The notes beneath the pieces were generated by a model, which saw nothing but the letters and a program-made list of their open reading frames with translations, searched no databases and was not told the DNA's origin. Positions 2,926 to 64,000 of a DNA stretch of 64,000 bases are shown here, piece after piece. Within the stretch, counting starts at the first letter, position 1. Every line of letters starts with the position of its first letter. A program made the translations under genes and the position numbers. Where the stretch lies: the NCBI GenBank assembly GCA_964016885.1, contig OZ024740.1, positions 323,578,001-323,642,000 on the forward strand, given 5' to 3'. The stretch comes from Eledone cirrhosa (lineage: Eukaryota).

Positions 2926-3161
2926 AGTTTTGTTTATTGAAGAATACAAAAAAATATACATATGAATAAGTAAGGTTTTATAACCAGGTTGAAATTGACC
3001 ATTGTTAAGAATGGAAAGGGGCAGTGTAAATCCTTAAGGTTGGTGGTAGTAGATGAATAAATAGGCCATCAGTGGATAAGGTATCAAATGACTTTTAAGA
3101 AAAGAAATGAAAGTTGTTAGTGTAAATGAGTTTAGGCATATTGTATATAAAAGTGTTGATG

Positions 3162-3590
3162 CTCAAAGTAATTGTAGAATAAAAGAAAATTGCCCCTTAA
3201 ATGGAAATTGCTTAATTAATAATATAGTATATAAATGTGTAATCACCACTAAATACTCTAATCAATCCTATATAGGATCCACTTCTAATCCATTTAAATC
3301 GAGATTTTATGCACACACCCACAGTTTCCGAAACACAAAATTAGCAAATACCACTTCTTTAGCAGAAGCAGTTAATAATTGTAAAAAGAAGAATATTAAA
3401 TATAACCTAACTTGGAAGATTCTTAAGAGAACTATTTCTTATCAGGGCAATAGAAGGGGGTGCGGACTCTGTTCCCAAGGAATTTTTGAAATTACTAAAT
3501 CGAAGGACACTATTAAATAAAAGACAAGAATTAATTTTAGTATGTAGCCATAAAATTAGAAGCACATTCAAATATTATAAATACAACTAA
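3162..3590 (+). pseudogene. GIY-YIG endonuclease domain fragment of a Penelope-like element
   Basis: CRIKENCPLNGNCL-NNIVYK...YIGSTSNPFKSRFYAH...SF...W...CGLC; premature stop at 3518-3520. Confidence 0.85.
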
Positions 3591-12591: not shown

Positions 12592-12654
12592 ATTTTGTCT
12601 GATGAAGGCATACCATAATTTAACTTGGTATCCTTGAAATATGTATAATGAAAT
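12592..12654 (+). ncRNA. Type I hammerhead ribozyme motif (slightly degenerate)
   Basis: attttgt-CTGATGA(12599-12605)-aggcatacca..tggtatcctt-GAAA(12636-12639)-tatgta-TA-atgaaat; its downstream sequence is repeated directly (about 12297-12410) and inverted (about 12196-12243). Confidence 0.6.
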
Positions 12655-19851: not shown

Positions 19852-22026
19852 TTGCGAGGTTTTTGATATGAAATCGTGTGTCGAAACAAATAATAGACAG
19901 TATGTACGTGGTATCATTATACCCATCCATTAACATTGATTTTGCTGTGGAAAATTGTGTGGAGATGATCATTGAGAGTGAAGTGGAGTTCTGCGACGTC
20001 GACACAGACGAACTGGTCCTCCTACTTAGACAGCCATGACCTTAGACGTTTCTGCCCCAGTAGACCCATACGAGGTAGACCCCCCCCCCCACCACCATAA
20101 CCTCAATGGCTAAAAAGACTCCCATGGGAAGGTGGATTGTGTGGACCAAAGCCATACCGACCCCCCAAAACAATGATCAGGTAAGAAAAATGGTCGCACA
20201 TGCAATAGGGGCTAGTATTATGACTACCCTAAAGGGCCACATATTCAAATTCAACGAGAAGATCTACACCCAAAATGAGGGAGCAGCCATTGGCGTCAGC
20301 ATAGCTGGTGACGTTGCCAACCTTTTTATGGTATGGTGAGAAAGGAGACTCAAAGATCTCCTTGATGAGAGCTCCATAGACCTCATCACGTACTCTCGTT
20401 ACGTAGACGACATCAATATAGTTATAAGGACATCCCTACAAGAGAGTACTAACAAGTTTGATTTAGAATGTAGCACAATGGAAAGCATCCAGCAGATAGC
20501 TAATTCCATACACCAGAGTATAACTGTAACTATCGACTTCCCTTCCAAACACCCTAATAATAGACTACCTGTATTAGAAACAGAACTCTGGATTAACACT
20601 ATAGACGAGAGAGCCCAAATTCTCCACTCACACTATGCTAAACCCATGGCCTCCAAATACCTGATACTCAAAAACTCAGCAATGTCCAGTAGTACTAAGT
20701 TTAATATTCTGATCGCAGATTCGGTACGAGTGATGAAGAATGTGTCCCGCATGTGCGACCCAACAGAAATGGAAAGACACATCCAACACTTCATCAACCG
20801 CATGCAGTTCTCTGGCTACAACCAAAGAGACAGAGTCAGAGTATACGAAGGAGCCATAGAGAAGTATAAGGCCCTCATAGAACTGGACATGAAAGGAATT
20901 TGCCCATTATACAGGAGCAAATCATGGAATAGCTTAGATAGGGCTAGACATAAGATAGGGAAAGCCACCTCATGGTACGACAACCAGAGATACCAGAGTG
21001 TCATGTTCGTGGACGCTACCACTGGAGTAAAATTAGCTAACCAGTGTAGAAAGGCCCTGAGAAAGACCCACTTAAAGATTAAGGTGGTAGAAAAGCCAGG
21101 AACCACCATAAAATCCCTGATCAGCAAAACCCACTGCAGTAATAGGAAATGTATTACATGTAAAGTGAACCCCCGGATAAACTGTAAAACTAGAAACGTA
21201 CTCTATAGCATAAGATGTACAGAGGGTACTTGCAGAAACATGACAACAACATACATAGGCGAGACAGCTCGTAGCATAGGTAAAAGGATAGACCAACACT
21301 GGGGGGGAACTAAAAGGACGAAAAAACGGGTCAGTACTATACGAACACGCCAGACAACAAACGACGGTAACATAGACAACATAGAAATTAGAATAATATC
21401 TAAACATAGAAATGACCCAGCAGATAGGCAAATCAGAGAGGCCAGTGAAATAGAACTTAGAAGGCCAAAGCTAAACAGAAAAAATGAATGGAATAACAAC
21501 ACCCAAACAAAAAATACCGACCTAAGAGAAGGATAAATGAATAAATAAATAAATAAATACATACACAAGCACAATAACAACAAACACATATAAACACACA
21601 CACTAGTAAACTAAGATAGAATACAATAACCAAAACACAGTCACCCAAACACGAACACACACCAAACATTATACACACGCGCAAACGCATGCGCAGAGAA
21701 GACAAAAATAAATAAATAAATGAATTAGCAGATTAAATAAAGATGGCGTAGACATACAATACAACAGGAGGAAACATAATAGCACCACTGACCACTGACG
21801 ATGTTGCAGATGTGGAACGAAAGAATTTTTTTTAGACTATATATATGTGTTTGTGTCTATATTATATCTATTTTTGACTGTTGGTCAGTCAATGGTAATA
21901 TTGAGGACCGAATAAATTGAATTAACTGATATAAAAGATACAGAAGCGAAAACCAACCAAACAGTGAGTGTGTTCTGTTATTAATTCTGGCAATATTATT
22001 ACACAAATATGACCCTCCCCATGTAT

Positions 22027-23665: not shown

Positions 23666-24456
23666 TATTATATACAATGCTTCAAGTAAACTATAACATT
23701 TTATTAAATATTACATTTACAGCACGCCGTAAGAGTGGACAAACTGCTCATGGGAGTCGAACTTCGTTTCTGTTGTTTACCAGATAATCACAATAACATA
23801 CACATATATTATATACATTTATTTATTTACACTCAAACAGACATATACACATACAAATACACACAAACACATGCACGCACTCTCACATTTGCATAATTAT
23901 ATCTATCTATGCACCTATGTAATATTAACTCAATCAGTTCTCTCTGCTGCACTCTCTCTTTCTCTCTCCCCCCTCCCTCTCTCCCTCTCTCCTCCTCTCT
24001 CTCTCTCCCTCAAATCTAACAGTTTGCCTGACAATATAATTGTCTTACTATCGATCACATTCCTCCACGTATTCATCAATATAACAATCCAGCTATCAAC
24101 TAAACCCTTCCCTCTATCTACCCATCTCTCCTTGTCTCTACATATCCAAGCATTCATTCATCACTTTTCCAACCAACCCATCTATCCATACCACCATCCG
24201 CCCAACAATACATCTACCCATCCACCCATGCACCAAAATATTTATCCCCCAATCCACCCATCCATTCATCCACACTTTCTTCAAGGCCGTCCATTCATGC
24301 ATTCATCCGTGCACCCATCTATCCACCCCTGCACCGATCCCTCCACACCACCAACCCATCCGTCCACCCATTCACAGAAACATTCATCCACACAATCACT
24401 CTACCATTTATCTACATTGCCTACAACCCAGGATGGATCCATCCATCCACACAATC

Positions 24457-25400
24457 ATTCATACAACCAATCCACCCGATCCTTCTATCCAACCAGCCAG
24501 CTATTTATCCATCCGTCTACCGAACCCACCATTCATACAACCAATCCACCCGACCCTTCTATCCAACCACCCAGCTATTTATCCATCCATCTACCGAACC
24601 CACCATTCATACAACCAATCCACCCAACCCTTCTATCCAACCACCCAGCTATTTATCCATCCATCTACCGAACCCACCATTCATACAACAAATCCACCCG
24701 ACCCTTCTATCCAACCACCCAGCTATTTATCCATCCATCTACCGAACCCACCATTCATACAACAAATCCACCCGACCCTTCTATCCAACCAGCCAGCTAT
24801 TTATCCATGAATCTACCGAACCCACCATTCATACAACAAATCCACCCGACCCTTCTATCCAACCACCCAGCTATTTATCCATCCATCTACCGAACCCACC
24901 ATTCATACAACAAATCCACCCGACCCTTCTATCCAACCACCCAGCTATTTATCCATCCATCTACCGAACCCACCATTCATACAACAAATCAACCCGACCC
25001 TTCTATCCAACCACCCAGCTATTTATCCATCCATCTACCGAACCCACCATTCATACAACAAATCCACCCGACCCTTCTATCCAACCACCCAGCTATTTAT
25101 CCATCCATCTACCGAACACACCATTCATACAACAAATCAACCCGACCCTTCTATCCAACCACCCAGCTATTTATCCATCCATCCGCCTAACCCACCATTC
25201 ATACAACCAATCCACCCAACCCTTCTATCCAACCAGCCAGCTATTTATCCATCCATTCACACAACCATTCATCCAACCAATCCACCCCACCCTTCTATCC
25301 AACCACACAACTGTTTATCCATCCATCCGCCTAACCCACCATTCATCTAACGAAACCACCCAACTCTTCTCTCCGACCACCCAGCTATATAACCATTCAT
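24457..25400. repeat. 74-bp minisatellite, about 12-13 copies, degenerate at the edges
   Basis: attcatacaa recurs at 24531, 24605, 24679 and onward. Confidence 0.95.
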
Positions 25401-25595
25401 CCTCCCACCCGACTATTTTCCACTCTGCCAATCACCGTTATTTATCCGCCAGAACCAGTCATCTGTATATATTTTCTATTTAACCGTTAATCTAAGAATT
25501 AATCTATACTTCATATTTTTTTACAAAGCATTTACATATTTCATTTCTTAAATGTTTCAGTTGTGAAGCAGAATTAAAGACCACACATACGCACT

Positions 25596-37530: not shown

Positions 37531-38640
37531 TCAGGTTGTTCAGAAAGTAATGCACGTTTTAAACATTAAATTAAAAACAACATATCTCATTCAAGAATAT
37601 ACTTTATTATTGAAATAAAAGTCACAAAAATCTAAATAACTTTGCCAAAAATATACAAGTTTGGTTAATCCGGAATGGCAGGAGACAATGAATTTTTCAA
37701 AAGACTTTTTGCGGTTGGTTGTTTGTTGAAGACTTTTCATTACAAGAAGTCTAAATTCTTGTAAAAGTAGTTGACGATTGGTGATGTTCCGGGGAACATT
37801 TTGGTTGAGGCAACTTTTCATCACCTAATTCTTTAACAACTTGTGGAAAGCTGGTTGTACGTTGTGCGATCGAGCGTTGTCGTGCAAGGGGATTGGACCC
37901 TTTCTATTGACCAATGCTGAACATATATGGGGTAATTCATGATGCGTTTCACCGATTTCGTCAGAATACTTTTCTTCTGTGATTGTTTCATCAGGAAAAC
38001 GTTAGTAAACTTCTTTTGGTGCAACCTCGGCTTTGAGAAGTGTTTAGGAGCATTAACTCGGTCCCCGGGCTCATCTGAGCGTCGCCGGTTGTTGTATAGG
38101 ATCCACCTTGCATCGCATGTCAGAATGTGATCAAGAAATGGGTAGTTTTCGTTGTTTGAAAAAAGGCTGAGATCATTGTACTGGTTTTCATTCGATTCTT
38201 GTGGCACCCATGTTTCAAAATTCTTCAGTTTAAATGCACAGAAATTGTTCCAATTGTTCCATCTAGCTTTCCTGGAAGTTTTTAAACAGTTGTGCGAAGA
38301 TTTGCTTCTAACAAAGCTCTTAATTCATCGTCATGAATGACAGTGTGACGCCTCCGAACTTACCTTCAATATCAACTTCAGCATGACAGACGTTTTGAAA
38401 CCAACGTTGCACTGTGCATTCATTAACACTTTCTATGCTCCAAACTTCATCGATGCTTCTAGCCATTTGTGATCTAATGCGGTTGAGTTTAAACTTATAA
38501 AAATATATTTGGAAAAACCCCTACTTGACATCTTAACTTCAAAGATCTATTAATCATAAATTATATTTTAAATGGATTAAAGAACAAGATGGATATTGAA
38601 ATAATCTCGAAAATGTTATATAATTTTATACGTGTCACGC
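37531..38640 (-). pseudogene. Mariner (Tc1/mariner) transposon relic
   Basis: TCDARWILYNN (mariner TCDEKWI motif), KPRLHQKK, LHDNARSH near 37865-37890; frameshifted; TA-flanked end near 37531. Confidence 0.85.
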
Positions 38641-40186: not shown

Positions 40187-40191
<5 letters not shown>

Positions 40192-40396
40192 AACGAGTAG
40201 GACCCCGACGGCTGAGCTCAAGCCGTTTCGACGGCTAATTCTGGTCTAAATGCACTTAGTCCAGAATTAGCCGTCGAAACGGCTTGAGCTCAGCCGTCGG
40301 GGTCCTACTCGTTCCTATTACCCACTCTACCACCCTAAGTATTGAGTACTTTGGTGCGTTATGGTCCACCTGGTTCCTTGCCACATTTCCTCCGTT
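40187..40396 (+). mobile_element. Fold-back element family H, copy 3
   Basis: Inverted arms 40187-40249 / 40256-40318; GAAA-cggc..gccg-TC-ggggtc at 40276-40304. Confidence 0.75.
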
Positions 40397-40652
40397 ATAT
40401 ATATATATATATATATATATTTATTTATTTATTTATTTATTTATTTATTAGAATGCTGTTGAAATGTGTATACATTTTTGAGACACCCTATATATAAATG
40501 TATTTATATGTATATAAGAATTAAAATACTAGAGTGTGTTGGAGTAAAACACACTCGTCGTACTATAGAAATGACAGTATAGGGTATAGCTCAACAGAGC
40601 CGAAAAATTATAAAAACAGACAAAGAAGCCTTCAATACATCAAAAGTCTTTA

Positions 40653-40700
40653 TTAGCCTACAATGTTTCGTCCCATTAATCAGGACTCATCAGGGCAAGT
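40653..40700 (-). ncRNA. Type I HHR with canonical G-C stem II
   Basis: Reverse strand: gcc-CTGATGA-gtcc-tgattaatg-ggac-GAAA-cattg-TA-ggc. Confidence 0.8.
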
Positions 40701-40868
40701 AAACAGATAAGAAGCATTAACGGCCAGCATTAACGGCCAGAACTAGTCCACACTTTTAGCTTTAGCATGCTTTTCCTTCATATCTCTCATAAGCTTTCAT
40801 GGATATGAATTCCCTATTCTTCTGAGTTTTGGTTAGTTCTGGCTGTTAATGCTTCTTATCTGTTTACT

Positions 40869-40913
40869 TTCCCTGATGAGTCCTGATTAATGGGACGAAA
40901 CATTGTAGGCTAA
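40869..40913 (+). ncRNA. Type I HHR (inverted partner copy; weaker stem I)
   Basis: CTGATGA 40873-40879, GAAA 40897-40900, GUA site after 40907. Confidence 0.7.
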
Positions 40914-41124
40914 TAAAGACATTTGATGTATTGAATGCTTCTTGGTCTATTTTTATAATTTTTTATAATTTTTTTATAATTTTTATAATTTTATATGTAT
41001 ATATATCACATTGATCACCTTGACCGAGTAGTCTGTCGGGGGGCCGACCGGCGCCGCTGGTCACAGCACGTCGTGCTGTTTTAGCTATAAGATTACGCCA
41101 TCCCACTGGCTGGGCGGGCAGGCC

Positions 41125-41632: not shown

Positions 41633-41665
41633 CATATATATATATATAAATATATATGTATATAT

Positions 41666-44600
41666 GAATATAGACATAGAATATTCGAAAATATTCTGTA
41701 TGTTTATAATAAACATTTTGAAGACCTAATCGCTATAGAATAGAATACGTCACGTATTACAATTAGATTCTCGATAAAAGCAAGGGAAGTAATCTACGCG
41801 TTTCATTCTTGTTAGAATTCATCAGGACTACATATCCAGTGCTTTTATCGAGAATGACACAGCTAGAGACTTATAGAATACTTAGCTGTGTACAGGAACT
41901 GGTTTGAAAGAGCGGTTGCCGGTCCGGCAGAAATTAGAAATTGGAATAAATGCTCTGAAATAGCGATATATATGTGAATATAGACATAGAATATTCGAAA
42001 ATATTCTGTATGTTTATAATAAACATTTTGAAGACCTAATCGCTATAGAATAGAATACGTCACGTATTACAATTAGATTCTCGATAAAAGCAAGGGAAGT
42101 AATCTACGCGTTTCATTCTTGTTAGAATTCATCAGGACTACATATCCAGTGCTTTTATCGAGAATGACACAGCTAGAGACTTATAGAATACTTAGCTGTG
42201 TACAGGAACTGGTTTGAAAGAGCGGTTGCCGGTCCGGCAGAAATTAGAAATTGGAATAAATGCTCTGAAATAGCGATATATATGTGAATATAGACATAGA
42301 ATATTCGAAAATATTCTGTATGTTTATAATAAACATTTTGAAGACCTAATCGCTATAGAATAGAATACGTCACGTATTACAATTAGATTCTCGATAAAAG
42401 CAAGGGAAGTAATCTACGCGTTTCATTCTTGTTAGAATTCATCAGGACTACATATCCAGTGCTTTTATCGAGAATGACACAGCTAGAGACTTATAGAATA
42501 CTTAGCTGTGTACAGGAACTGGTTTGAAAGAGCGGTTGCCGGTCCGGCAGAAATTAGAAATTGGAATAAATGCTCTGAAATAGCGATATATATGTGAATA
42601 TAGACATAGAATATTCGAAAATATTCTGTATGTTTATAATAAACATTTTGAAGACCTAATCGCTATAGAATAGAATACGTCACGTATTACAATTAGATTC
42701 TCGATAAAAGCAAGGGAAGTAATCTACGCGTTTCATTCTTGTTAGAATTCATCAGGACTACATATCCAGTGCTTTTATCGAGAATGACACAGCTAGAGAC
42801 TTATAGAATACTTAGCTGTGTACAGGAACTGGTTTGAAAGAGCGGTTGCCGGTCCGGCAGAAATTAGAAATTGGAATAAATGCTCTGAAATAGCGATATA
42901 TATGTGAATATAGACATAGAATATTCGAAAATATTCTGTATGTTTATAATAAACATTTTGAAGACCTAATCGCTATAGAATAGAATACGTCACGTATTAC
43001 AATTAGATTCTCGATAAAAGCAAGGGAAGTAATCTACGCGTTTCATTCTTGTTAGAATTCATCAGGACTACATATCCAGTGCTTTTATCGAGAATGACAC
43101 AGCTAGAGACTTATAGAATACTTAGCTGTGTACAGGAACTGGTTTGAAAGAGCGGTTGCCGGTCCGGCAGAAATTAGAAATTGGAATAAATGCTCTGAAA
43201 TAGCGATATATATGTGAATATAGACATAGAATATTCGAAAATATTCTGTATGTTTATAATAAACATTTTGAAGACCTAATCGCTATAGAATAGAATACGT
43301 CACGTATTACAATTAGATTCTCGATAAAAGCAAGGGAAGTAATCTACGCGTTTCATTCTTGTTAGAATTCATCAGGACTACATATCCAGTGCTTTTATCG
43401 AGAATGACACAGCTAGAGACTTATAGAATACTTAGCTGTGTACAGGAACTGGTTTGAAAGAGCGGTTGCCGGTCCGGCAGAAATTAGAAATTGGAATAAA
43501 TGCTCTGAAATAGCGATATATATGTGAATATAGACATAGAATATTCGAAAATATTCTGTATGTTTATAATAAACATTTTGAAGACCTAATCGCTATAGAA
43601 TAGAATACGTCACGTATTACAATTAGATTCTCGATAAAAGCAAGGGAAGTAATCTACGCGTTTCATTCTTGTTAGAATTCATCAGGACTACATATCCAGT
43701 GCTTTTATCGAGAATGACACAGCTAGAGACTTATAGAATACTTAGCTGTGTACAGGAACTGGTTTGAAAGAGCGGTTGCCGGTCCGGCAGAAATTAGAAA
43801 TTGGAATAAATGCTCTGAAATAGCGATATATATGTGAATATAGACATAGAATATTCGAAAATATTCTGTATGTTTATAATAAACATTTTGAAGACCTAAT
43901 CGCTATAGAATAGAATACGTCACGTATTACAATTAGATTCTCGATAAAAGCAAGGGAAGTAATCTACGCGTTTCATTCTTGTTAGAATTCATCAGGACTA
44001 CATATCCAGTGCTTTTATCGAGAATGACACAGCTAGAGACTTATAGAATACTTAGCTGTGTACAGGAACTGGTTTGAAAGAGCGGTTGCCGGTCCGGCAG
44101 AAATTAGAAATTGGAATAAATGCTCTGAAATAGCGATATATATGTGAATATAGACATAGAATATTCGAAAATATTCTGTATGTTTATAATAAACATTTTG
44201 AAGACCTAATCGCTATAGAATAGAATACGTCACGTATTACAATTAGATTCTCGATAAAAGCAAGGGAAGTAATCTACGCGTTTCATTCTTGTTAGAATTC
44301 ATCAGGACTACATATCCAGTGCTTTTATCGAGAATGACACAGCTAGAGACTTATAGAATACTTAGCTGTGTACAGGAACTGGTTTGAAAGAGCGGTTGCC
44401 GGTCCGGCAGAAATTAGAAATTGGAATAAATGCTCTGAAATAGCGATATATATGTGAATATAGACATAGAATATTCGAAAATATTCTGTATGTTTATAAT
44501 AAACATTTTGAAGACCTAATCGCTATAGAATAGAATACGTCACGTATTACAATTAGATTCTCGATAAAAGCAAGGGAAGTAATCTACGCGTTTCATTCTT

Positions 44601-44786
44601 GTTAGAATTCATCAGGACTACATATCCAGTGCTTTTATCGAGAATGACACAGCTAGAGACTTATAGAATACTTAGCTGTGTACAGGAACTGGTTTGAAAG
44701 AGCGGTTGCCGGTCCGGCAGAAATTAGAAATTGGAATAAATGCTCTGAAATAGCGATATATATGTGAATATAGACATAGAATATTC
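41666..44786 (-). repeat. 310-bp HHR-bearing tandem array, left arm (10 full units plus about 20 bp)
   Basis: gaatatagacatag at 41666, 41976, ... 44766; HHR on the minus strand at 41789-41831 + 310k (k=0..9). Confidence 0.95.
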
Positions 44787-47385
44787 TATTCTATAGCGAT
44801 TAGGTCTTCAAAATGTTTATTATAAACATACAGAATATTTTCGAATATTCTATGTCTATATTCACATATATATCGCTATTTCAGAGCATTTATTCCAATT
44901 TCTAATTTCTGCCGGACCGGCAACCGCTCTTTCAAACCAGTTCCTGTACACAGCTAAGTATTCTATAAGTCTCTAGCTGTGTCATTCTCGATAAAAGCAC
45001 TGGATATGTAGTCCTGATGAATTCTAACAAGAATGAAACGCGTAGATTACTTCCCTTGCTTTTATCGAGAATCTAATTGTAATACGTGACGTATTCTATT
45101 CTATAGCGATTAGGTCTTCAAAATGTTTATTATAAACATACAGAATATTTTCGAATATTCTATGTCTATATTCACATATATATCGCTATTTCAGAGCATT
45201 TATTCCAATTTCTAATTTCTGCCGGACCGGCAACCGCTCTTTCAAACCAGTTCCTGTACACAGCTAAGTATTCTATAAGTCTCTAGCTGTGTCATTCTCG
45301 ATAAAAGCACTGGATATGTAGTCCTGATGAATTCTAACAAGAATGAAACGCGTAGATTACTTCCCTTGCTTTTATCGAGAATCTAATTGTAATACGTGAC
45401 GTATTCTATTCTATAGCGATTAGGTCTTCAAAATGTTTATTATAAACATACAGAATATTTTCGAATATTCTATGTCTATATTCACATATATATCGCTATT
45501 TCAGAGCATTTATTCCAATTTCTAATTTCTGCCGGACCGGCAACCGCTCTTTCAAACCAGTTCCTGTACACAGCTAAGTATTCTATAAGTCTCTAGCTGT
45601 GTCATTCTCGATAAAAGCACTGGATATGTAGTCCTGATGAATTCTAACAAGAATGAAACGCGTAGATTACTTCCCTTGCTTTTATCGAGAATCTAATTGT
45701 AATACGTGACGTATTCTATTCTATAGCGATTAGGTCTTCAAAATGTTTATTATAAACATACAGAATATTTTCGAATATTCTATGTCTATATTCACATATA
45801 TATCGCTATTTCAGAGCATTTATTCCAATTTCTAATTTCTGCCGGACCGGCAACCGCTCTTTCAAACCAGTTCCTGTACACAGCTAAGTATTCTATAAGT
45901 CTCTAGCTGTGTCATTCTCGATAAAAGCACTGGATATGTAGTCCTGATGAATTCTAACAAGAATGAAACGCGTAGATTACTTCCCTTGCTTTTATCGAGA
46001 ATCTAATTGTAATACGTGACGTATTCTATTCTATAGCGATTAGGTCTTCAAAATGTTTATTATAAACATACAGAATATTTTCGAATATTCTATGTCTATA
46101 TTCACATATATATCGCTATTTCAGAGCATTTATTCCAATTTCTAATTTCTGCCGGACCGGCAACCGCTCTTTCAAACCAGTTCCTGTACACAGCTAAGTA
46201 TTCTATAAGTCTCTAGCTGTGTCATTCTCGATAAAAGCACTGGATATGTAGTCCTGATGAATTCTAACAAGAATGAAACGCGTAGATTACTTCCCTTGCT
46301 TTTATCGAGAATCTAATTGTAATACGTGACGTATTCTATTCTATAGCGATTAGGTCTTCAAAATGTTTATTATAAACATACAGAATATTTTCGAATATTC
46401 TATGTCTATATTCACATATATATCGCTATTTCAGAGCATTTATTCCAATTTCTAATTTCTGCCGGACCGGCAACCGCTCTTTCAAACCAGTTCCTGTACA
46501 CAGCTAAGTATTCTATAAGTCTCTAGCTGTGTCATTCTCGATAAAAGCACTGGATATGTAGTCCTGATGAATTCTAACAAGAATGAAACGCGTAGATTAC
46601 TTCCCTTGCTTTTATCGAGAATCTAATTGTAATACGTGACGTATTCTATTCTATAGCGATTAGGTCTTCAAAATGTTTATTATAAACATACAGAATATTT
46701 TCGAATATTCTATGTCTATATTCACATATATATCGCTATTTCAGAGCATTTATTCCAATTTCTAATTTCTGCCGGACCGGCAACCGCTCTTTCAAACCAG
46801 TTCCTGTACACAGCTAAGTATTCTATAAGTCTCTAGCTGTGTCATTCTCGATAAAAGCACTGGATATGTAGTCCTGATGAATTCTAACAAGAATGAAACG
46901 CGTAGATTACTTCCCTTGCTTTTATCGAGAATCTAATTGTAATACGTGACGTATTCTATTCTATAGCGATTAGGTCTTCAAAATGTTTATTATAAACATA
47001 CAGAATATTTTCGAATATTCTATGTCTATATTCACATATATATCGCTATTTCAGAGCATTTATTCCAATTTCTAATTTCTGCCGGACCGGCAACCGCTCT
47101 TTCAAACCAGTTCCTGTACACAGCTAAGTATTCTATAAGTCTCTAGCTGTGTCATTCTCGATAAAAGCACTGGATATGTAGTCCTGATGAATTCTAACAA
47201 GAATGAAACGCGTAGATTACTTCCCTTGCTTTTATCGAGAATCTAATTGTAATACGTGACGTATTCTATTCTATAGCGATTAGGTCTTCAAAATGTTTAT
47301 TATAAACATACAGAATATTTTCGAATATTCTATGTCTATATTCACATATATATCGCTATTTCAGAGCATTTATTCCAATTTCTAA
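44782..47385 (+). repeat. 310-bp HHR-bearing tandem array, inverted right arm (about 8.4 units)
   Basis: Reverse complement of the left-arm unit; HHR at 45008-45050 + 310k (k=0..7). Confidence 0.95.
45008..45050 (+). ncRNA. Minimal type I hammerhead ribozyme of the 310-nt monomer (18 copies in total)
   Basis: gtagtc-CTGATGA(45014-45020)-attc-taacaa-gaat-GAAA(45035-45038)-cgcg-TA-gattac; stem I 6 bp (1 G-U), stem II 4 bp, palindromic ACGCGT; GUA site after 45044. Confidence 0.9.
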
Positions 47386-47403
47386 TATGTATATATATAT
47401 ATG

Positions 47404-47455
<52 letters not shown>

Positions 47456-47456
47456 C

Positions 47457-47525
<69 letters not shown>

Positions 47526-47526
47526 G

Positions 47527-47641
<115 letters not shown>

Positions 47642-47755
47642 TACATATATATATATACATACATACATACATACATACATACATACATACATACATACAT
47701 ACATACATACATACATGCATGCATACATACATACATACATACATACATACATACA

Positions 47756-47803
<48 letters not shown>

Positions 47804-55420: not shown

Positions 55421-56519
55421 TTGTTATACTTGGGGAGGGTCATATTTGTGTAATAATATAGCCAGAATTAATAACAGAACACACTCACTGTTTGGTTGGT
55501 TTTCGCTTTTCGCTTCTGTGTCTTTTATATCGGTAACCTAATTTATTCGGTTCTCAATGTTGCCATTGATTGACCGACGGTCAAAAATAATACAGATACA
55601 ATATAGACACAAACACATATATATAGTTTATCAAAGTTCTTTCGTTGCACATCTGCAACATCGTCAGTGGTGCTATTGTTTCCTCCCGTTACATTGTATG
55701 TCTACGCCATTTTTATTTAGTCTGTCTATATATTTATTTATTTATTTGTTTGTTTATTTTATTTTGTCTTCTTTGCGCATGCGTTTGCGTGTGTGTATAG
55801 TGTTTTGTTTGATGTGTGTTCGTGATCGTATTCTATGTATTCTATGTATTCTATCTTTACTAGTGTGTGTTTATATGTGTTTGTTGTTATTGTGCTTGTG
55901 TATGTATTTATTTATTTATTTATCTATTTATTTATTTATTTATACTTCTCTTAGGTCAGCGCTGTTTGTTTGGGTGTTGTTGTTATTCCATTCATTCTTT
56001 CTGTTTAGTCTTGGCCTTCTAAGTTCTATTTCACTGGTCTCTCTGATTTGCCTATCTGCTGGGTCATTTCTATGTTTAGATATTATTCTAATTTCTATGT
56101 TGTCTATGTTACCGTCGTGTTGTTGGATGGCATGTTCGTATAGTACTGAACCGTTTTTTCGTCCTTTTAGTTCCCCCAGTGTTGGTCTATCCTTTCACCT
56201 ATGCTACGAGCTGTCTCGCCTATGTATGTTGTTGTCATGTTTCTGCAAGTACCCTCTGTACATCTTATGCTATAGACTACGCTTCTAGTTTTACAGTTTA
56301 TCCGGGGGTTTACCTTACATATGATACATTTCCTATTAGTACAGTGGGTTTTCTTAAAAGGGTAGGTTTTGCTGATCAGAGATTTTATGGTTGTTCCTGG
56401 CTTTTCTACCACCTTAATCTTTAAGTGGTCTTTCTCAGGGCCTTTCTACACTGGTTAGCTAATTTCCCTCCAAGGGTAGCGTCCACAAACATGACACTCT
56501 GGTATCTCTGGTTGTCGTA
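55421..56519 (-). mobile_element. Second, 5'-truncated copy of the 19.8-22.0 kb Penelope family (GIY-YIG + 3' region)
   Basis: ORF 56167-56412 (VEKPGTTIKSLISK...YIGETARSIGER) is nearly identical to the 20478 ORF. Confidence 0.9.
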
Positions 56520-61369: not shown

Positions 61370-63840
61370 TGTTCGACATGAACTCACGAGTCAACAATAC
61401 TCAGATACTCGACGAGTGTGTGCAATACGGTTTCTTCACTCTGCGTGCATCTGAAACAGGCCCGGTTAATGGCACTTCCATGCCTATAGAATTGATTTAG
61501 AACTGCCAAAGCTCATCGGTAGCACTTGCAGAATAAGAATTTCTGGAATTTATCCATGGTACCTGGAACGAAAGTTCTCCGAAAGAGTGTGGCTAGTTAG
61601 TTTTCGTTGACACCTAGATTTTCCCCCAAGAACTTCAACGCTTTAACCAGTCACAAACCTTCTGTAGACGCCAAGAGGTGGTTTCTATCGGTCGTATTGT
61701 CCCGATTGGTAGAGGGCTGTGAGCACTTGAAACATTTTAATTTCCAAGCCTTCCCGCATGGTCTTCGCTTTGTTCATATGCCTCTAAGGATCAACTCTTA
61801 ATTAACCTTATGATCCTTGAGAACTGCCATAACAAGCAAAAAAATCTAAGTTCTGCGGGGATTGATTACAAAAAGCTTTTGACTGCATACCACATTCATC
61901 GACTCTGAAATCGATGTATATCTCCGAAATTTCTCATGTAAATTCAAACATTCTTAAATATAATATACCATTGTTGAATAAGGATCTCCAGTAATGTAAT
62001 TCCAATGGAGAACTAAGTTGAAACAATACTAGCTTCAGCTGTAGCATTTTCCAAGGTGACACACTTTCAACTCTATGTTTCATAGCTCAAAATACTCTTA
62101 CAATCGAAGTTAACAGAACAAGTTGTGGTTATAAAATTGACAAAAGAAAAATAAGCCATATTATATGTGAATGGCAAGGGCGGTGGATTGGCAGTATCGG
62201 TAGAGGATCTGACGCCATGTTTTGCAGCAAAGAGTTACGGCCTTTTATGGTCTGAGTTCAAATCCCGCCGAGGTTAACTTTGCCTTTCATCCTTACGGGG
62301 TCGATAAAATAAAGTACCAGTAATACACTGGGATAATTGCTGGCCTTGTGCCAAAAGTAGAAACAATTATATATGAATGGCCTAAAACTAGATGGCAAAG
62401 CCAATGATGAGCTTGAACTTTTTTTACATACAGTGAAAACATTCAATGATGACATCGGGTTGGAATTTGGGCTTGGTAAGTGTGTCAATTCCACTTTCAG
62501 GAAAATAAAAGTTGATAAACTCAAATTCAGTCGAACTAGACATTGAAACAGTTATAAAAGATATAAAGGAATAAACCTACAAATACCTAGGTATAAATGA
62601 AGGCTCCGACATGCATAGTTCAAGCATGAAAGAGAAGATAAGAAAGGGGGAATGTTATAGGAGAGTACGAGAAATTTTCAAATCTGAGGTAAATACACAT
62701 AACAAGATGATAGACATAAATTCATTAACAGCTCCAGTTGTTAGTTATAGCTTCAATGTGTTGAACAGGGATATGAGTGAAATAAAGAGAATTGACACAA
62801 ACAATCGTAAGTTGCTGACTTTTAAGAAGATGTACCATCCAGAGGCAGATGGAAACTGTCTTTACCTTCCAAGAACTCAAAGAGGCAGAAGCTTGACCCA
62901 GTTTTAACTGTCTTACAAAACCACCACAATTGAACTGGTCAAATATCTTGAAACTACAAAAGCCTGGATGGTAAAATTCGTTGAAAAATACGAGAGGAGT
63001 AAGAAGCTTTATTCTATCTTGAAAGAGAGCAAACATATTGCTACTGATCTCATGACTGATATCTAGGCTGGACAGACCAGGGGAACTGTGGTAACTGTTG
63101 TTGGAAATCAAGGAAAATTAAAAAGGGCATGAAAAATTGATATCCAGGTGGGAGCAGAAACCTCTGCATGACAAATATGTGGCCTGTAGCAAACGTGATG
63201 ATGTTGACCAGAAGCACACCCATCAGTGGCTACGTAGCTGAGGGCTTAAGGCAGAAAAGGAAGGCTTCATCTTAACTGTCCAAAATCAAAGCTTATAAAC
63301 TCGGAACTATCAAGCCAATGTGATGAGAAACGGAGTAGATCGAAAGTGCTAATTCTGCAATGATACGATTGAAACAGTGAAGCATGTAATTTCTGGATGT
63401 AAAGTTTAGAGCTTTAGTAGAGTATAAAGCATGGCATGACAGAGTTGGCCAATACCTACACTGGTTAATATGTCGATAGTAATGCTATGGTAACTGAGGT
63501 AGAAACTGTAAAGATTCTTTGGGACTTCACTGTACAAACAAACAGAACCATGAAAGCTAACAGACCAGATATTATTGTAAAAGTATGTCTATTGATTGAT
63601 ATGAGCATCCCATGTGATCACAATATTGCGGCAAAAGAATTTGACAGGGCCAGAAAATATAATGACTTACATATTGAAATTGAAGGAAATGTGACATCTC
63701 AAGTTTGTTACAATACCAGTGAATTTAGGAGCGCTAGCACTGATAAAAAATTAAATAATGAATATTGTTTGAGAACAATCCATGGCTTGCCACCTCTGCA
63801 GGAACTGCAAAAGACTGTTTTAACTAGTACGACTCGTATT
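61370..63840 (+). pseudogene. Decayed R4/Dong-type non-LTR retrotransposon (RT, CCHC, restriction-like endonuclease)
   Basis: IDYKK/AFD..PH (61861), IFQGDTLS (about 62046), YKYLGI, LYLPRTQRGRSL, C..C...ETVKHVISGC, ILWDFTVQTNRTMKANRPDIIV..LIDMSIP; many stops and frameshifts. Confidence 0.85.
62176..62369 (+). mobile_element. SINE family A inserted into the LINE RT catalytic region
   Basis: TSD-like tatatgtgaatggc (62162-62175) / tatatatgaatggc (62368-62381). Confidence 0.9.
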
Positions 63841-64000
63841 GAGAAGAGTACTATCACTGTGGGAAAGATAACCGTCTATGTAATTTCTTTACTTTTATTA
63901 GGTTATATTCCATAATTATTTAAGTTGTATATAATTGAGCACTCATATGATGAAATATTATGTTGTAAATAAGATTTTATACAGATAATGTGCACATGGA

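Follow-up and report, generated by a model that had tools for sequence, protein, structure and literature searches.

How does a short non-coding sequence come to stand many times over, without a single substitution, in two arms that meet head to head? The question is raised by a 64,000-nucleotide (nt) stretch of the Eledone cirrhosa genome (assembly GCA_964016885.1, 3.0 Gb in 1,796 contigs; contig OZ024740.1, positions 323,578,001 to 323,642,000 of the forward strand), hereafter the window, which contains an inverted array of 310-nt units, each carrying a hammerhead ribozyme (HHR). We read this array as one insertion of a young, high-copy retrozyme of the kind without long terminal repeats (non-LTR), mobilised by a Penelope-like element (PLE) acting in trans, probably a Neptune-type one, with both DNA ends priming on one circular RNA; we put the probability of this reading at roughly 0.6. 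Coordinates are those of the window unless another sequence is named, and published work is cited from excerpts of the articles concerned.

The array and its hammerhead ribozyme

Units are numbered from the first base after the predicted cleavage site (position 1 = window 45045). The 13-nt hammerhead motif was found ten times on the minus strand (41819-44609) and eight times on the plus strand (45008-47178), with a spacing of exactly 310 nt. The left arm (41665..44786, minus strand) is 3,122 bp long, which corresponds to 10.07 identical units, and extends from an inner end at unit position 109 to an outer end, the 3' end in the sense of the RNA, at position 130 ("site 1"). The right arm (44782..47386, plus strand; 2,605 bp, 8.40 identical units) has its inner end at position 48 and its outer end at position 172 ("site 2"). 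Both arms showed 0 mismatches to a perfect 310-nt period, and in both the HHR-sense 3' end faces outward, into a (TA)-rich tract. The unit has a G+C content of 34% (106/310) and, when it is read as a circle, its longest ATG-started open reading frame (ORF) has 30 amino acids (aa); it holds no reverse transcriptase (RT) or GIY-YIG ORF, hence it is not an autonomous PLE. A preliminary description of the locus, made from its letters, had reported ten minus-strand and eight plus-strand units, no substitution between them, outward 3' ends in (TA)-rich tracts and no ORF, and the present analysis bore out all of this.

At their head-to-head joint the two arms overlap in a 5-nt microhomology common to both (44782..44786). 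Their outer ends are offset by 42 nt (130 vs 172; 35-42 nt family-wide), and unit positions 131-172 form a tail (47345..47386, plus strand) that is present only at the right end of the insertion and absent from the left. The insertion is flanked by a 12-bp target-site duplication, read on the plus strand, the left copy of which (41654..41665) lies within a (TA)n tract (41634-41665), and the right copy of which (47385..47396) opens a TA/TACA tract (47385-47803). Neither the offset nor this duplication had been noted in the preliminary description.

Each of the 18 units holds a type I hammerhead. In the unit at 45008..45050 (plus strand) this comprises the core CUGAUGA/GAAA/UA, a helix I of 6 bp, a helix II of 4 bp and a helix III of one pair with a palindromic CGCG loop, and the cut is predicted after 45044. 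Helix I is extended (44984..45072, plus strand) by a 16-bp helix of 44984-44999 with 45057-45072 that closes the ribozyme; the predicted energy of the extension is −31.9 kcal/mol (z −6.4), and 0 of 200 shuffled sequences were equally stable. The circular fold of the monomer has −68.3 kcal/mol (z −4.1, 100 dinucleotide shuffles). Helix III, a single A-U pair capped by CGCG, is predicted to close unfavourably within a unit (+2.1 vs −3.3 kcal/mol), and the palindrome ACGCGU to pair between two units at −7.5 kcal/mol. Since helix III is weak inside the unit and its palindrome can pair across units, cleavage is predicted to occur in the dimer. The canonical metazoan type I motif, with 6 bp in helix I, 4 bp in helix II and 1-2 bp in helix III under a palindromic loop, likewise cleaves as a dimer in tandem RNA, and its monomer circle is thought to remain quiet (PMC4209133); the window unit appears to be a dimer-type type I hammerhead matching that motif. 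A weak palindromic helix III has been described for the axolotl ribozyme HHR_Amex1 (PMC7229834).

The preliminary description had called the ribozyme complete, and this stands for the core, helices I and II and the one-pair helix III, but not for the G10.1-C11.1 pair or the Rfam score. This closing pair of helix II is replaced by A-U in the window and by U.U in the majority allele of the family, and the window unit gave no match to the Rfam hammerhead clan CL00010 at the gathering threshold (within the searched stretch, 13 units each reached 23 bits with Hammerhead_HH9, where 52 are required). The axolotl HHR_Amex2 cleaves despite a U.U at the base of helix II (PMC7229834). Across 89 loci the core bases show no fixed change except at position 7. 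In the older sister subfamilies the core pair is C3-G8 or U3-A8, except in two of the 40 commonest forms listed, which have C-A; helix II covaries. The conservation of core pair and helix II may be taken as indirect evidence for selection on catalysis.

Ends, haplotypes and arm lengths across the family

The preliminary description had called for a search for other loci, and this search, carried out as sequence-pattern matching in the same assembly, counted 16,367 family units by an invariant 32-mer. The ribozyme allele of the window is a minority allele, with 2,528 copies genome-wide (15% of genomic units). The junction of site 2 with TA occurs 1,046 times, which is a minimum for the number of insertion ends, and the site-1/TA pattern 1,279 times, some of these being internal units of a variant. 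As the sampled loci hold on average ~10.5 units, the 16,367 units correspond to an estimated ~1,500 loci, or 0.17% of the genome. Two features by which retrozymes are recognised are present: the family is dispersed (at least 1,046 junctions), and a type I HHR stands in 18/18 full units of the window. The array had been described as one recent event; it does look single-step, but the locus is one among the estimated 1,500, and inversion is the rule in the family.

The sample consisted of 70 loci of contig C1, namely the window, nine that were the first to be found by the ribozyme, 40 found by the site-2 junction and 20 by the site-1 junction. Sixty of them were thus chosen by one end in TA, with the other end unconstrained. 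Head-to-head two-arm inverted arrays made up 63 of the 70, six loci were single-arm and one was interrupted by an N gap. In every one of the 63 two-arm loci, one outer end lay at 126-139 (modal 130) and the other at 154-172 (modal 165), and two site-1 or two site-2 ends were found in 0/63 (binomial p 2e-19). Nine later loci seen end to end were all two-arm with one short and one long end, one of the short ends lying at 114; L204 and L205 were single-arm, and L207 and L209 showed one arm within the short stretches fetched.

As regards the target, nine of the ten loci not selected by their ends sit in TA tracts. The exception, L034 (G000:C1:68678500-68683500), is a non-TA insertion with a clear 12-bp target duplication and a long end at 154. 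Target duplications of 11-12 bp were recognised in 6/63 loci (shuffled mean 0.95, maximum 3 in 300), and in the remaining loci they are masked by the TA tracts or absent.

Three arrays (L037, L200 and L201), all fixed for the variant 158G, end at 167 and not at the modal 165; because all three 158G arrays share this end, local RNA sequence is suggested to set the start site. The tail includes a 16-nt motif (45183..45198, plus strand; unit positions 139-154) that is unchanged in older, otherwise clearly diverged sister families and may be a protein-recognition site. A GC-rich motif (45224..45240, plus strand; unit positions 180-196), largely conserved in the sister families, is a candidate promoter or protein site. 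The older sister families share the tail motif and the same anatomy, with 18/26 loci inverted in a single-unit search, and their arms did not exceed 1.7 units in the 26 loci viewed within 1.5 kb.

Then, we compared the haplotypes of the two arms. They were identical in 37 of the 39 loci in which both arms had at least two units, and these loci included 19 haplotypes; permutation of the arm haplotypes gave a mean of 4.7 matching loci and a maximum of 16 (100,000 runs). Overall, 38 haplotypes were present among 89 loci. In 13/70 loci a variant was shared by all units covering its position and was absent from the other loci of the sample. A mutation that arose in one unit and is fixed in every unit of both arms requires a one-unit bottleneck, which a circle would supply. 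The variant 158G has 36 copies genome-wide, distributed in three wholly fixed inverted arrays and two lone units, and array L201 is the sole holder of its haplotype among all 36. The two lone units were considered as parents of the 158G arrays and rejected, as they have other haplotype backgrounds. Not every "private" fixed variant marks a bottleneck at that insertion, since 210A, the other such variant followed genome-wide, proved to be a subfamily with 324 copies; in the first 100 of these listed, an array mostly has the variant in all of its units or in none. In locus L097 the arm difference is probably not real, as it adjoins a joint located in the unit's own inverted repeat.

The fixed changes also differ in kind from the sporadic ones: with polarity taken relative to the window unit, and thus uncertain for old variants, A>G and T>C on the sense strand account for 12 and 4 of 40 distinct fixed sites, and for 8 and 17 of 111 sporadic changes (Fisher p 0.011). 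In the predicted fold, which pairs 61% of all A, an A-U pair becomes G.U at ten of the 12 fixed A>G sites. Adenosine-to-inosine (A-to-I) editing or structural selection could each cause this bias, and both act at the RNA level. A side observation is that fixed changes at positions 20, 158 and 276 and an insertion after position 2 recur on several haplotype backgrounds, six or more in the case of 276G, which points to repeated editing or to template switches from circle to circle.

The arm lengths are informative on how the arrays arose. They fit an exponential distribution with a mean of 1,624 bp, or about five laps (126 arms, 95 of them longer than two units; Kolmogorov-Smirnov p 0.32). Non-fixed divergence amounts to 87 in 162,136 bases. 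It is 11/52,514 in the younger group, marked by A287, and 76/109,622 in the older T287 group, and the arm lengths of the two groups are alike (p 0.74). Among the 49 sporadic substitutions in the 72 arms of 3-14 units, 0 are multi-copy; each is found in a single unit. Ordinary arrays look born at full length, in a single step. The divergence pattern of an old unequal-crossover satellite, which the preliminary description had named as grounds for dropping its proposal, is absent from these arms, while those of at least 14.5 units do carry multi-copy variants.

The inner ends are scattered evenly along the unit (chi-square p 0.17), and none falls at the cleavage site. As they do not cluster there, we rejected a model in which the RT jumps from one linear monomer to the next and so strings them together. 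Leaving out two complex joints, 45 of the 61 simple joints have no insert and 16 have one, several of these inserts being visibly copied from nearby unit sequence. Microhomology of at least 2 nt was present in 24 of the 45 insert-free joints (random 18%, p 1e-7) and of at least 4 nt in nine (random 2.4%). Two individual features are worth recording: the inner joints of L041 and L049 hold extra short orientation-switching segments, as from repeated annealing and synthesis, and at L082 (1599-1870) a 272-nt foreign sequence, with no match among the fetched loci, was captured at the inner joint.

Proposed mechanism and its alternatives

The end positions, target, duplication, haplotype sharing, length distribution and microhomology described above are observed in DNA. 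PLE insertions often comprise an inverted truncated copy and carry a tail of 30-40 bp at only one of their ends; a preference for (TA)n is known from several clades (PMC8557442). The retrozyme insertions follow this PLE-type anatomy: inverted truncated copy, one-sided tail, (TA)n. A purified PLE (Poseidon, from Anolis) cuts and extends both strands and uses two internal RT start sites, the distance of which equals the tail (PMC11167929). We consider PLE-type double priming very probable. The preliminary description had proposed a Penelope-type RT and an array made in a single step, and the family-wide PLE anatomy, the haplotypes and the single-copy mutations all agree with this. It had also assumed a single RT pass; inversion as the rule points instead to two priming events, one per DNA end, which fit better.

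The mechanism that we propose would proceed as follows. The tandem units would be transcribed, and adjacent hammerheads would fold as a dimer through the palindromic helix III and release 310-nt monomers, which a host ligase would circularise; judging from the structure and from published retrozymes, the lone circle would hardly cleave again. The PLE endonuclease would cut with a stagger of ~11-12 nt, nearly always in (TA)n, and the two DNA 3' ends would prime RT on the same RNA molecule, with start sites of ~130 for one end and ~165-172 for the other. Each RT would then travel round the presumed circle until a random stop, after ~1.6 kb or five laps on average. The two cDNA 3' ends would probably anneal by microhomology and template each other's second strand, giving the head-to-head array. 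A few very long arms would later enlarge by unequal exchange.

A candidate source of the enzyme is present in the same genome. It is a coding PLE family with RT and GIY-YIG motifs and a Cys linker (motifs recognised by eye), with 73 scored matches, many of them having open 758-aa frames at 95-98% identity. We take it to be of Neptune type, a label that rests on these motifs and on the description of the clades in PMC8557442, and not on a tree. The nearest atlas clusters of the 758-aa ORF carry HTH_animal and, from rank 10, also RVT_1 and GIY-YIG; in Pfam the PLE-like ORFs gave sub-threshold GIY-YIG matches only, and a PDB sequence search with a PLE-like ORF returned nothing relevant. The copies of this family end about +21 (+10 to +30) or about +89 after their own HHR, the inverted copies that we saw pairing a short end with a long one, and their ribozyme core and helix II are nearly identical to those of the majority retrozyme allele. 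On these grounds the coding 758-aa PLE is our candidate for the enzyme source.

Two further observations concern this kind of element. The Neptune-like family has many inverted copies in which both inner ends lie immediately upstream of the hammerhead, with cores 50-61 nt apart (G000:C1 24136515/24136571, 44866990/44867040, 72725139/72725189), whereas the retrozyme inner ends are evenly spread; there may be an RT stop or an RNA 5' end upstream of the Neptune-like hammerhead. Another Neptune-like element, at L042 (1200-6500), lies in TA; it has RT and GIY-YIG motifs and a hammerhead of its own, and its arms are inverted, with a tail at one of the two ends.

A number of observations weigh against the proposed reading, some of them on the side of the data. 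The 70-locus sample comes from a single contig and was preselected for one TA end in 60 cases, and a first, cruder test of target duplications was not significant (21/63; shuffled mean 13.9, maximum 24), the TA tracts swamping the signal. Transcription, cleavage, circularity, the enzyme and the order of the steps are what we infer from these data. On the side of the ribozyme, eight of nine predicted Xenopus retrozyme dimers were inactive in vitro (bioRxiv 10.64898/2026.07.22.740005). The in vitro PLE system had the same start sites on both strands (PMC11167929), with no strand difference, whereas the ends of the insertions studied here use different start sites in 63/63 loci. As regards the candidate enzyme, beyond the core and helix II its family has no above-chance similarity to the retrozyme (alignment score 66 vs a shuffled maximum of 81, with a query unit that spanned the joint), and its tail is 68 nt long, vs 35-42 nt in the retrozyme. 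A search with the conserved tail motif for an ORF-bearing partner found, among the matches listed, only mutated family copies and older retrozyme subfamilies; the Neptune-like 3' regions among the fetched loci had no outstanding tail similarity, in a comparison made without a shuffle control.

Other unfavourable observations speak for particular rivals. Loci L093 (173C) and L069 (204T) each have a variant that is confined to the first lap but present there in both arms, a pattern not accounted for by a single, unchanging circle. Such mirrored variants would arise if the same PLE twin priming took place on a long, uncleaved linear multimer RNA from an existing array, circles being a side product or an occasional template. 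The in vitro PLE system is compatible with this, as its hammerhead was dispensable for insertion and uncut RNA was the main template (PMC11167929), and the circle is here deduced from DNA. Still, mirroring is limited to these two loci (of 31 sporadic positions that the other arm covers, one gave a shared pair, and L069 comes in addition), and the 13/70 loci with an array-wide fixed variant, as well as the unique haplotype of L201, each need the one-unit bottleneck, so that we regard a linear template as unlikely. Locus L062 is a mosaic, as laps 1-4 of one arm have A276 and all other units have G; this needs two templates, a change mid-way or later conversion. It could be taken to mean that the arms are copied from two separate RNAs, drawn from a pool made clonal within the cell by the dominance of one source locus or circle lineage at a time. 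This would require a near-clonal pool in 37/39 cases despite 38 haplotypes among 89 loci, and a clonal pool alone leaves the strict one-of-each rule for the start sites (63/63) unexplained; we find it decidedly improbable.

The remaining rivals are later amplification of an insertion, a DNA-level origin and an artefact. A short PLE-type inverted insertion could have expanded on the spot in the manner of a satellite, by unequal crossover, and been kept uniform by conversion between the arms, and local amplification has been proposed for vertebrate retrozymes (10.64898/2026.07.22.740005). In the six arms of at least 14.5 units, 9/20 variants are multi-copy, and two arms of 45-46 units have higher-order duplication. 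Shared or periodic variants occur in the longest arms (L053, L082, L052, L073 and L202) and in the old sister array L197. The arms of 45-46 units were indeed expanded later by local duplication, in a satellite-like manner. As a general explanation this process is very unlikely, given the 0/49 multi-copy substitutions in arms of 3-14 units, the equal lengths of the younger A287 and older T287 arms (p 0.74) and the short arms (at most 1.7 units) of the older sister families. An extrachromosomal DNA circle, if copied by the rolling-circle route, would fix one haplotype per locus just as an RNA circle would; fold-back replication is another possible DNA-level origin, and an assembly artefact has also to be considered, since inverted tandem arrays are hard to assemble and the array is known here from the assembly alone. 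Against all of these stand the two fixed outer end-points, the TA targeting, the 11-12-bp duplications, the differing flanks of the two sides, the unequal arms with unrelated inner phases, the sense-strand A>G bias of the fixed variants and the same anatomy in protein-coding PLE copies, and we deem them extremely improbable.

Surroundings, known systems and meaning

Left of the array, the window holds a second, unrelated hammerhead family as an inverted pair (40505-41005, cores at 40693 on the minus and 40873 on the plus strand). The left arm of this pair is long-tailed; the right one is short and ends in TA, which is again a PLE-type anatomy. Further type I hammerhead families, many with a palindromic helix III, lie at 12599, 19651, 34759, 39597 and 58270 and in loci L031-L164; none of those in the window reaches the Rfam cut-off. 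The genome looks very rich in ribozyme-bearing PLE ends, and its DNA is AT-rich and full of microsatellites, which has a cephalopod look. PLE-like coding remnants, with RT end and GIY-YIG motifs recognised by eye, lie at 20340-21536 (plus), 3092-3520 (plus) and 55542-56424, Pfam giving a weak GIY-YIG match for 3092-3520 only. What we take to be a mariner-like transposase remnant and remnants like long interspersed nuclear elements (LINEs), at 37833-38324 (minus) and 62575-63915 (plus), gave no Pfam match. A 74-bp minisatellite of 12.8 copies (24456-25401) and a near-perfect palindrome of ~125 bp flanked by TA tracts (40191-40316) complete the features.

The unit sequence is also present in other public data: 20 runs, under 18 organism labels and from 17 studies, contain 73-100% of its sampled words. 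None of these runs is recorded as RNA, so they have no bearing on expression. Among 24 listed runs, four (X1, X3, X20 and X23) were examined at read level. X1, X3 and X20 each gave one closed 340-nt contig at a depth of 17-34 and without loose ends, two of them identical to the minority allele of the window; the library kind is unrecorded, and such closed contigs fit an RNA circle or collapsed tandem DNA alike. The raw Hi-C run X23, from the study of one holder, had 0 reads of the unit in 1,938 million letters, and unit words were not found in X21 and X22, which come from the same sample as another holder. In those two cases the unit does not have the look of a high-copy genomic repeat. Cross-contamination, diet or related host species is the likeliest and simpler explanation of the runs from other organisms; that the 310-nt circle exists as a viroid-like RNA outside host chromosomes and reaches other animals is, in our judgement, highly improbable.

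Metazoan non-LTR retrozymes have been described as non-coding tandem units of 170-400 nt with less than 50% GC, a type I HHR in each and a target-site duplication of more than 4 bp (PMC7229834; PMC7761336). The array resembles them in its non-coding 310-nt tandem units with 34% GC, weak palindromic helix III and predicted well-folded circle, and in its target duplication of more than 4 bp, and differs from them, as published, in the inverted two-arm arrays, the fixed tail offset and the single haplotype per locus. Expression and cleavage have been demonstrated for the published metazoan retrozymes, whereas the array is known from DNA sequence alone. Cervera and de la Pena (2020) hypothesised that a primed circle is copied by a PLE to multimeric cDNA (PMC7229834), and a review states, in the portion cited here, that retrozyme repeats lack a motif indicating the mobilising element (PMC7761336). 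Li, Clavereau and Pollet derived vertebrate retrozymes from PLEs, on the basis of Neptune-type co-occurrence and homology with PLE pseudo-LTRs (pLTR), and suggested local satellite-type amplification (10.64898/2026.07.22.740005). The PLE link, the tandem HHR units and the presence alongside Neptune-type elements are shared with that account, unlike the full length at birth that ordinary arrays appear to have here, and unlike the self-propagation of the lineage through several sister subfamilies. The excerpts of that preprint do not analyse insertion ends ("tail" has 0 matches in them and "inverted" occurs only in a reference).

With the PLEs of the endonuclease-bearing (EN+) clades Neptune, Naiad and Hydra (PMC8557442) and with Poseidon (PMC11167929), the array shares the inverted 5'-truncated copy, the one-end tail, the (TA)n target and an HHR that precedes the start sites, and it would also share the two internal RT start sites and the cutting and extension of both strands. 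Unlike PLEs, it has no ORF, each arm is a many-lap tandem of the 310-nt unit, and the origin of both arms from the same molecule is readable from haplotypes. The green algal Chlamys elements, such as MRC1, are non-autonomous PLE partners with multicopy head-to-tail insertions (PMC8557442). Unlike the window array, MRC1-type elements share 3' sequence with autonomous families, and most Chlamys lack canonical HHRs (PMC8557442). Retrozymes, the hypothesis of a circular template copied by a PLE, PLE ancestry and PLE anatomy are already in print, and the anatomy of the retrozyme arrays seems new. The word "inverted" has 0 occurrences in the main text of PMC7229834, and the literature covered, including the cited part of PMC11722881, held no report of inverted two-arm retrozyme arrays with a PLE tail, one-of-each starts and shared arm haplotypes; this coverage was thin for subscription journals and did not extend to the supplement of PMC7229834.

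A comparison can also be drawn with twin priming in L1 elements. There, two primings at a staggered cut lead to an inversion with the RNA 3' ends outward and with microhomology at the inner joint. Twin priming is a minority outcome in L1, uses a linear RNA and has one internal, variable priming site, whereas in the family studied here inversion is the rule (63/70), the two sites are fixed and the template is copied for many laps.

Concerning the spread of retrozymes, the PLE signature is present at almost all loci, the insertions point out which start sites to test, and the haplotype of each locus is a genomic record of multimeric copying from one template. In published work, the PLE second strand and the inverted one-tailed insertion are described as still undefined. 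Because the two ends follow the one-of-each start-site rule and the arms share a haplotype, we suggest a PLE dimer that primes the two DNA ends on a single RNA, with each cDNA priming the other. The 310-nt RNA, the (TA)n target and the apparently intact 758-aa PLE ORF of the same genome would form a small reconstitutable system. For the genome itself, the ~1,500 young inverted arrays are potential sources of long double-stranded RNA and hairpin DNA.

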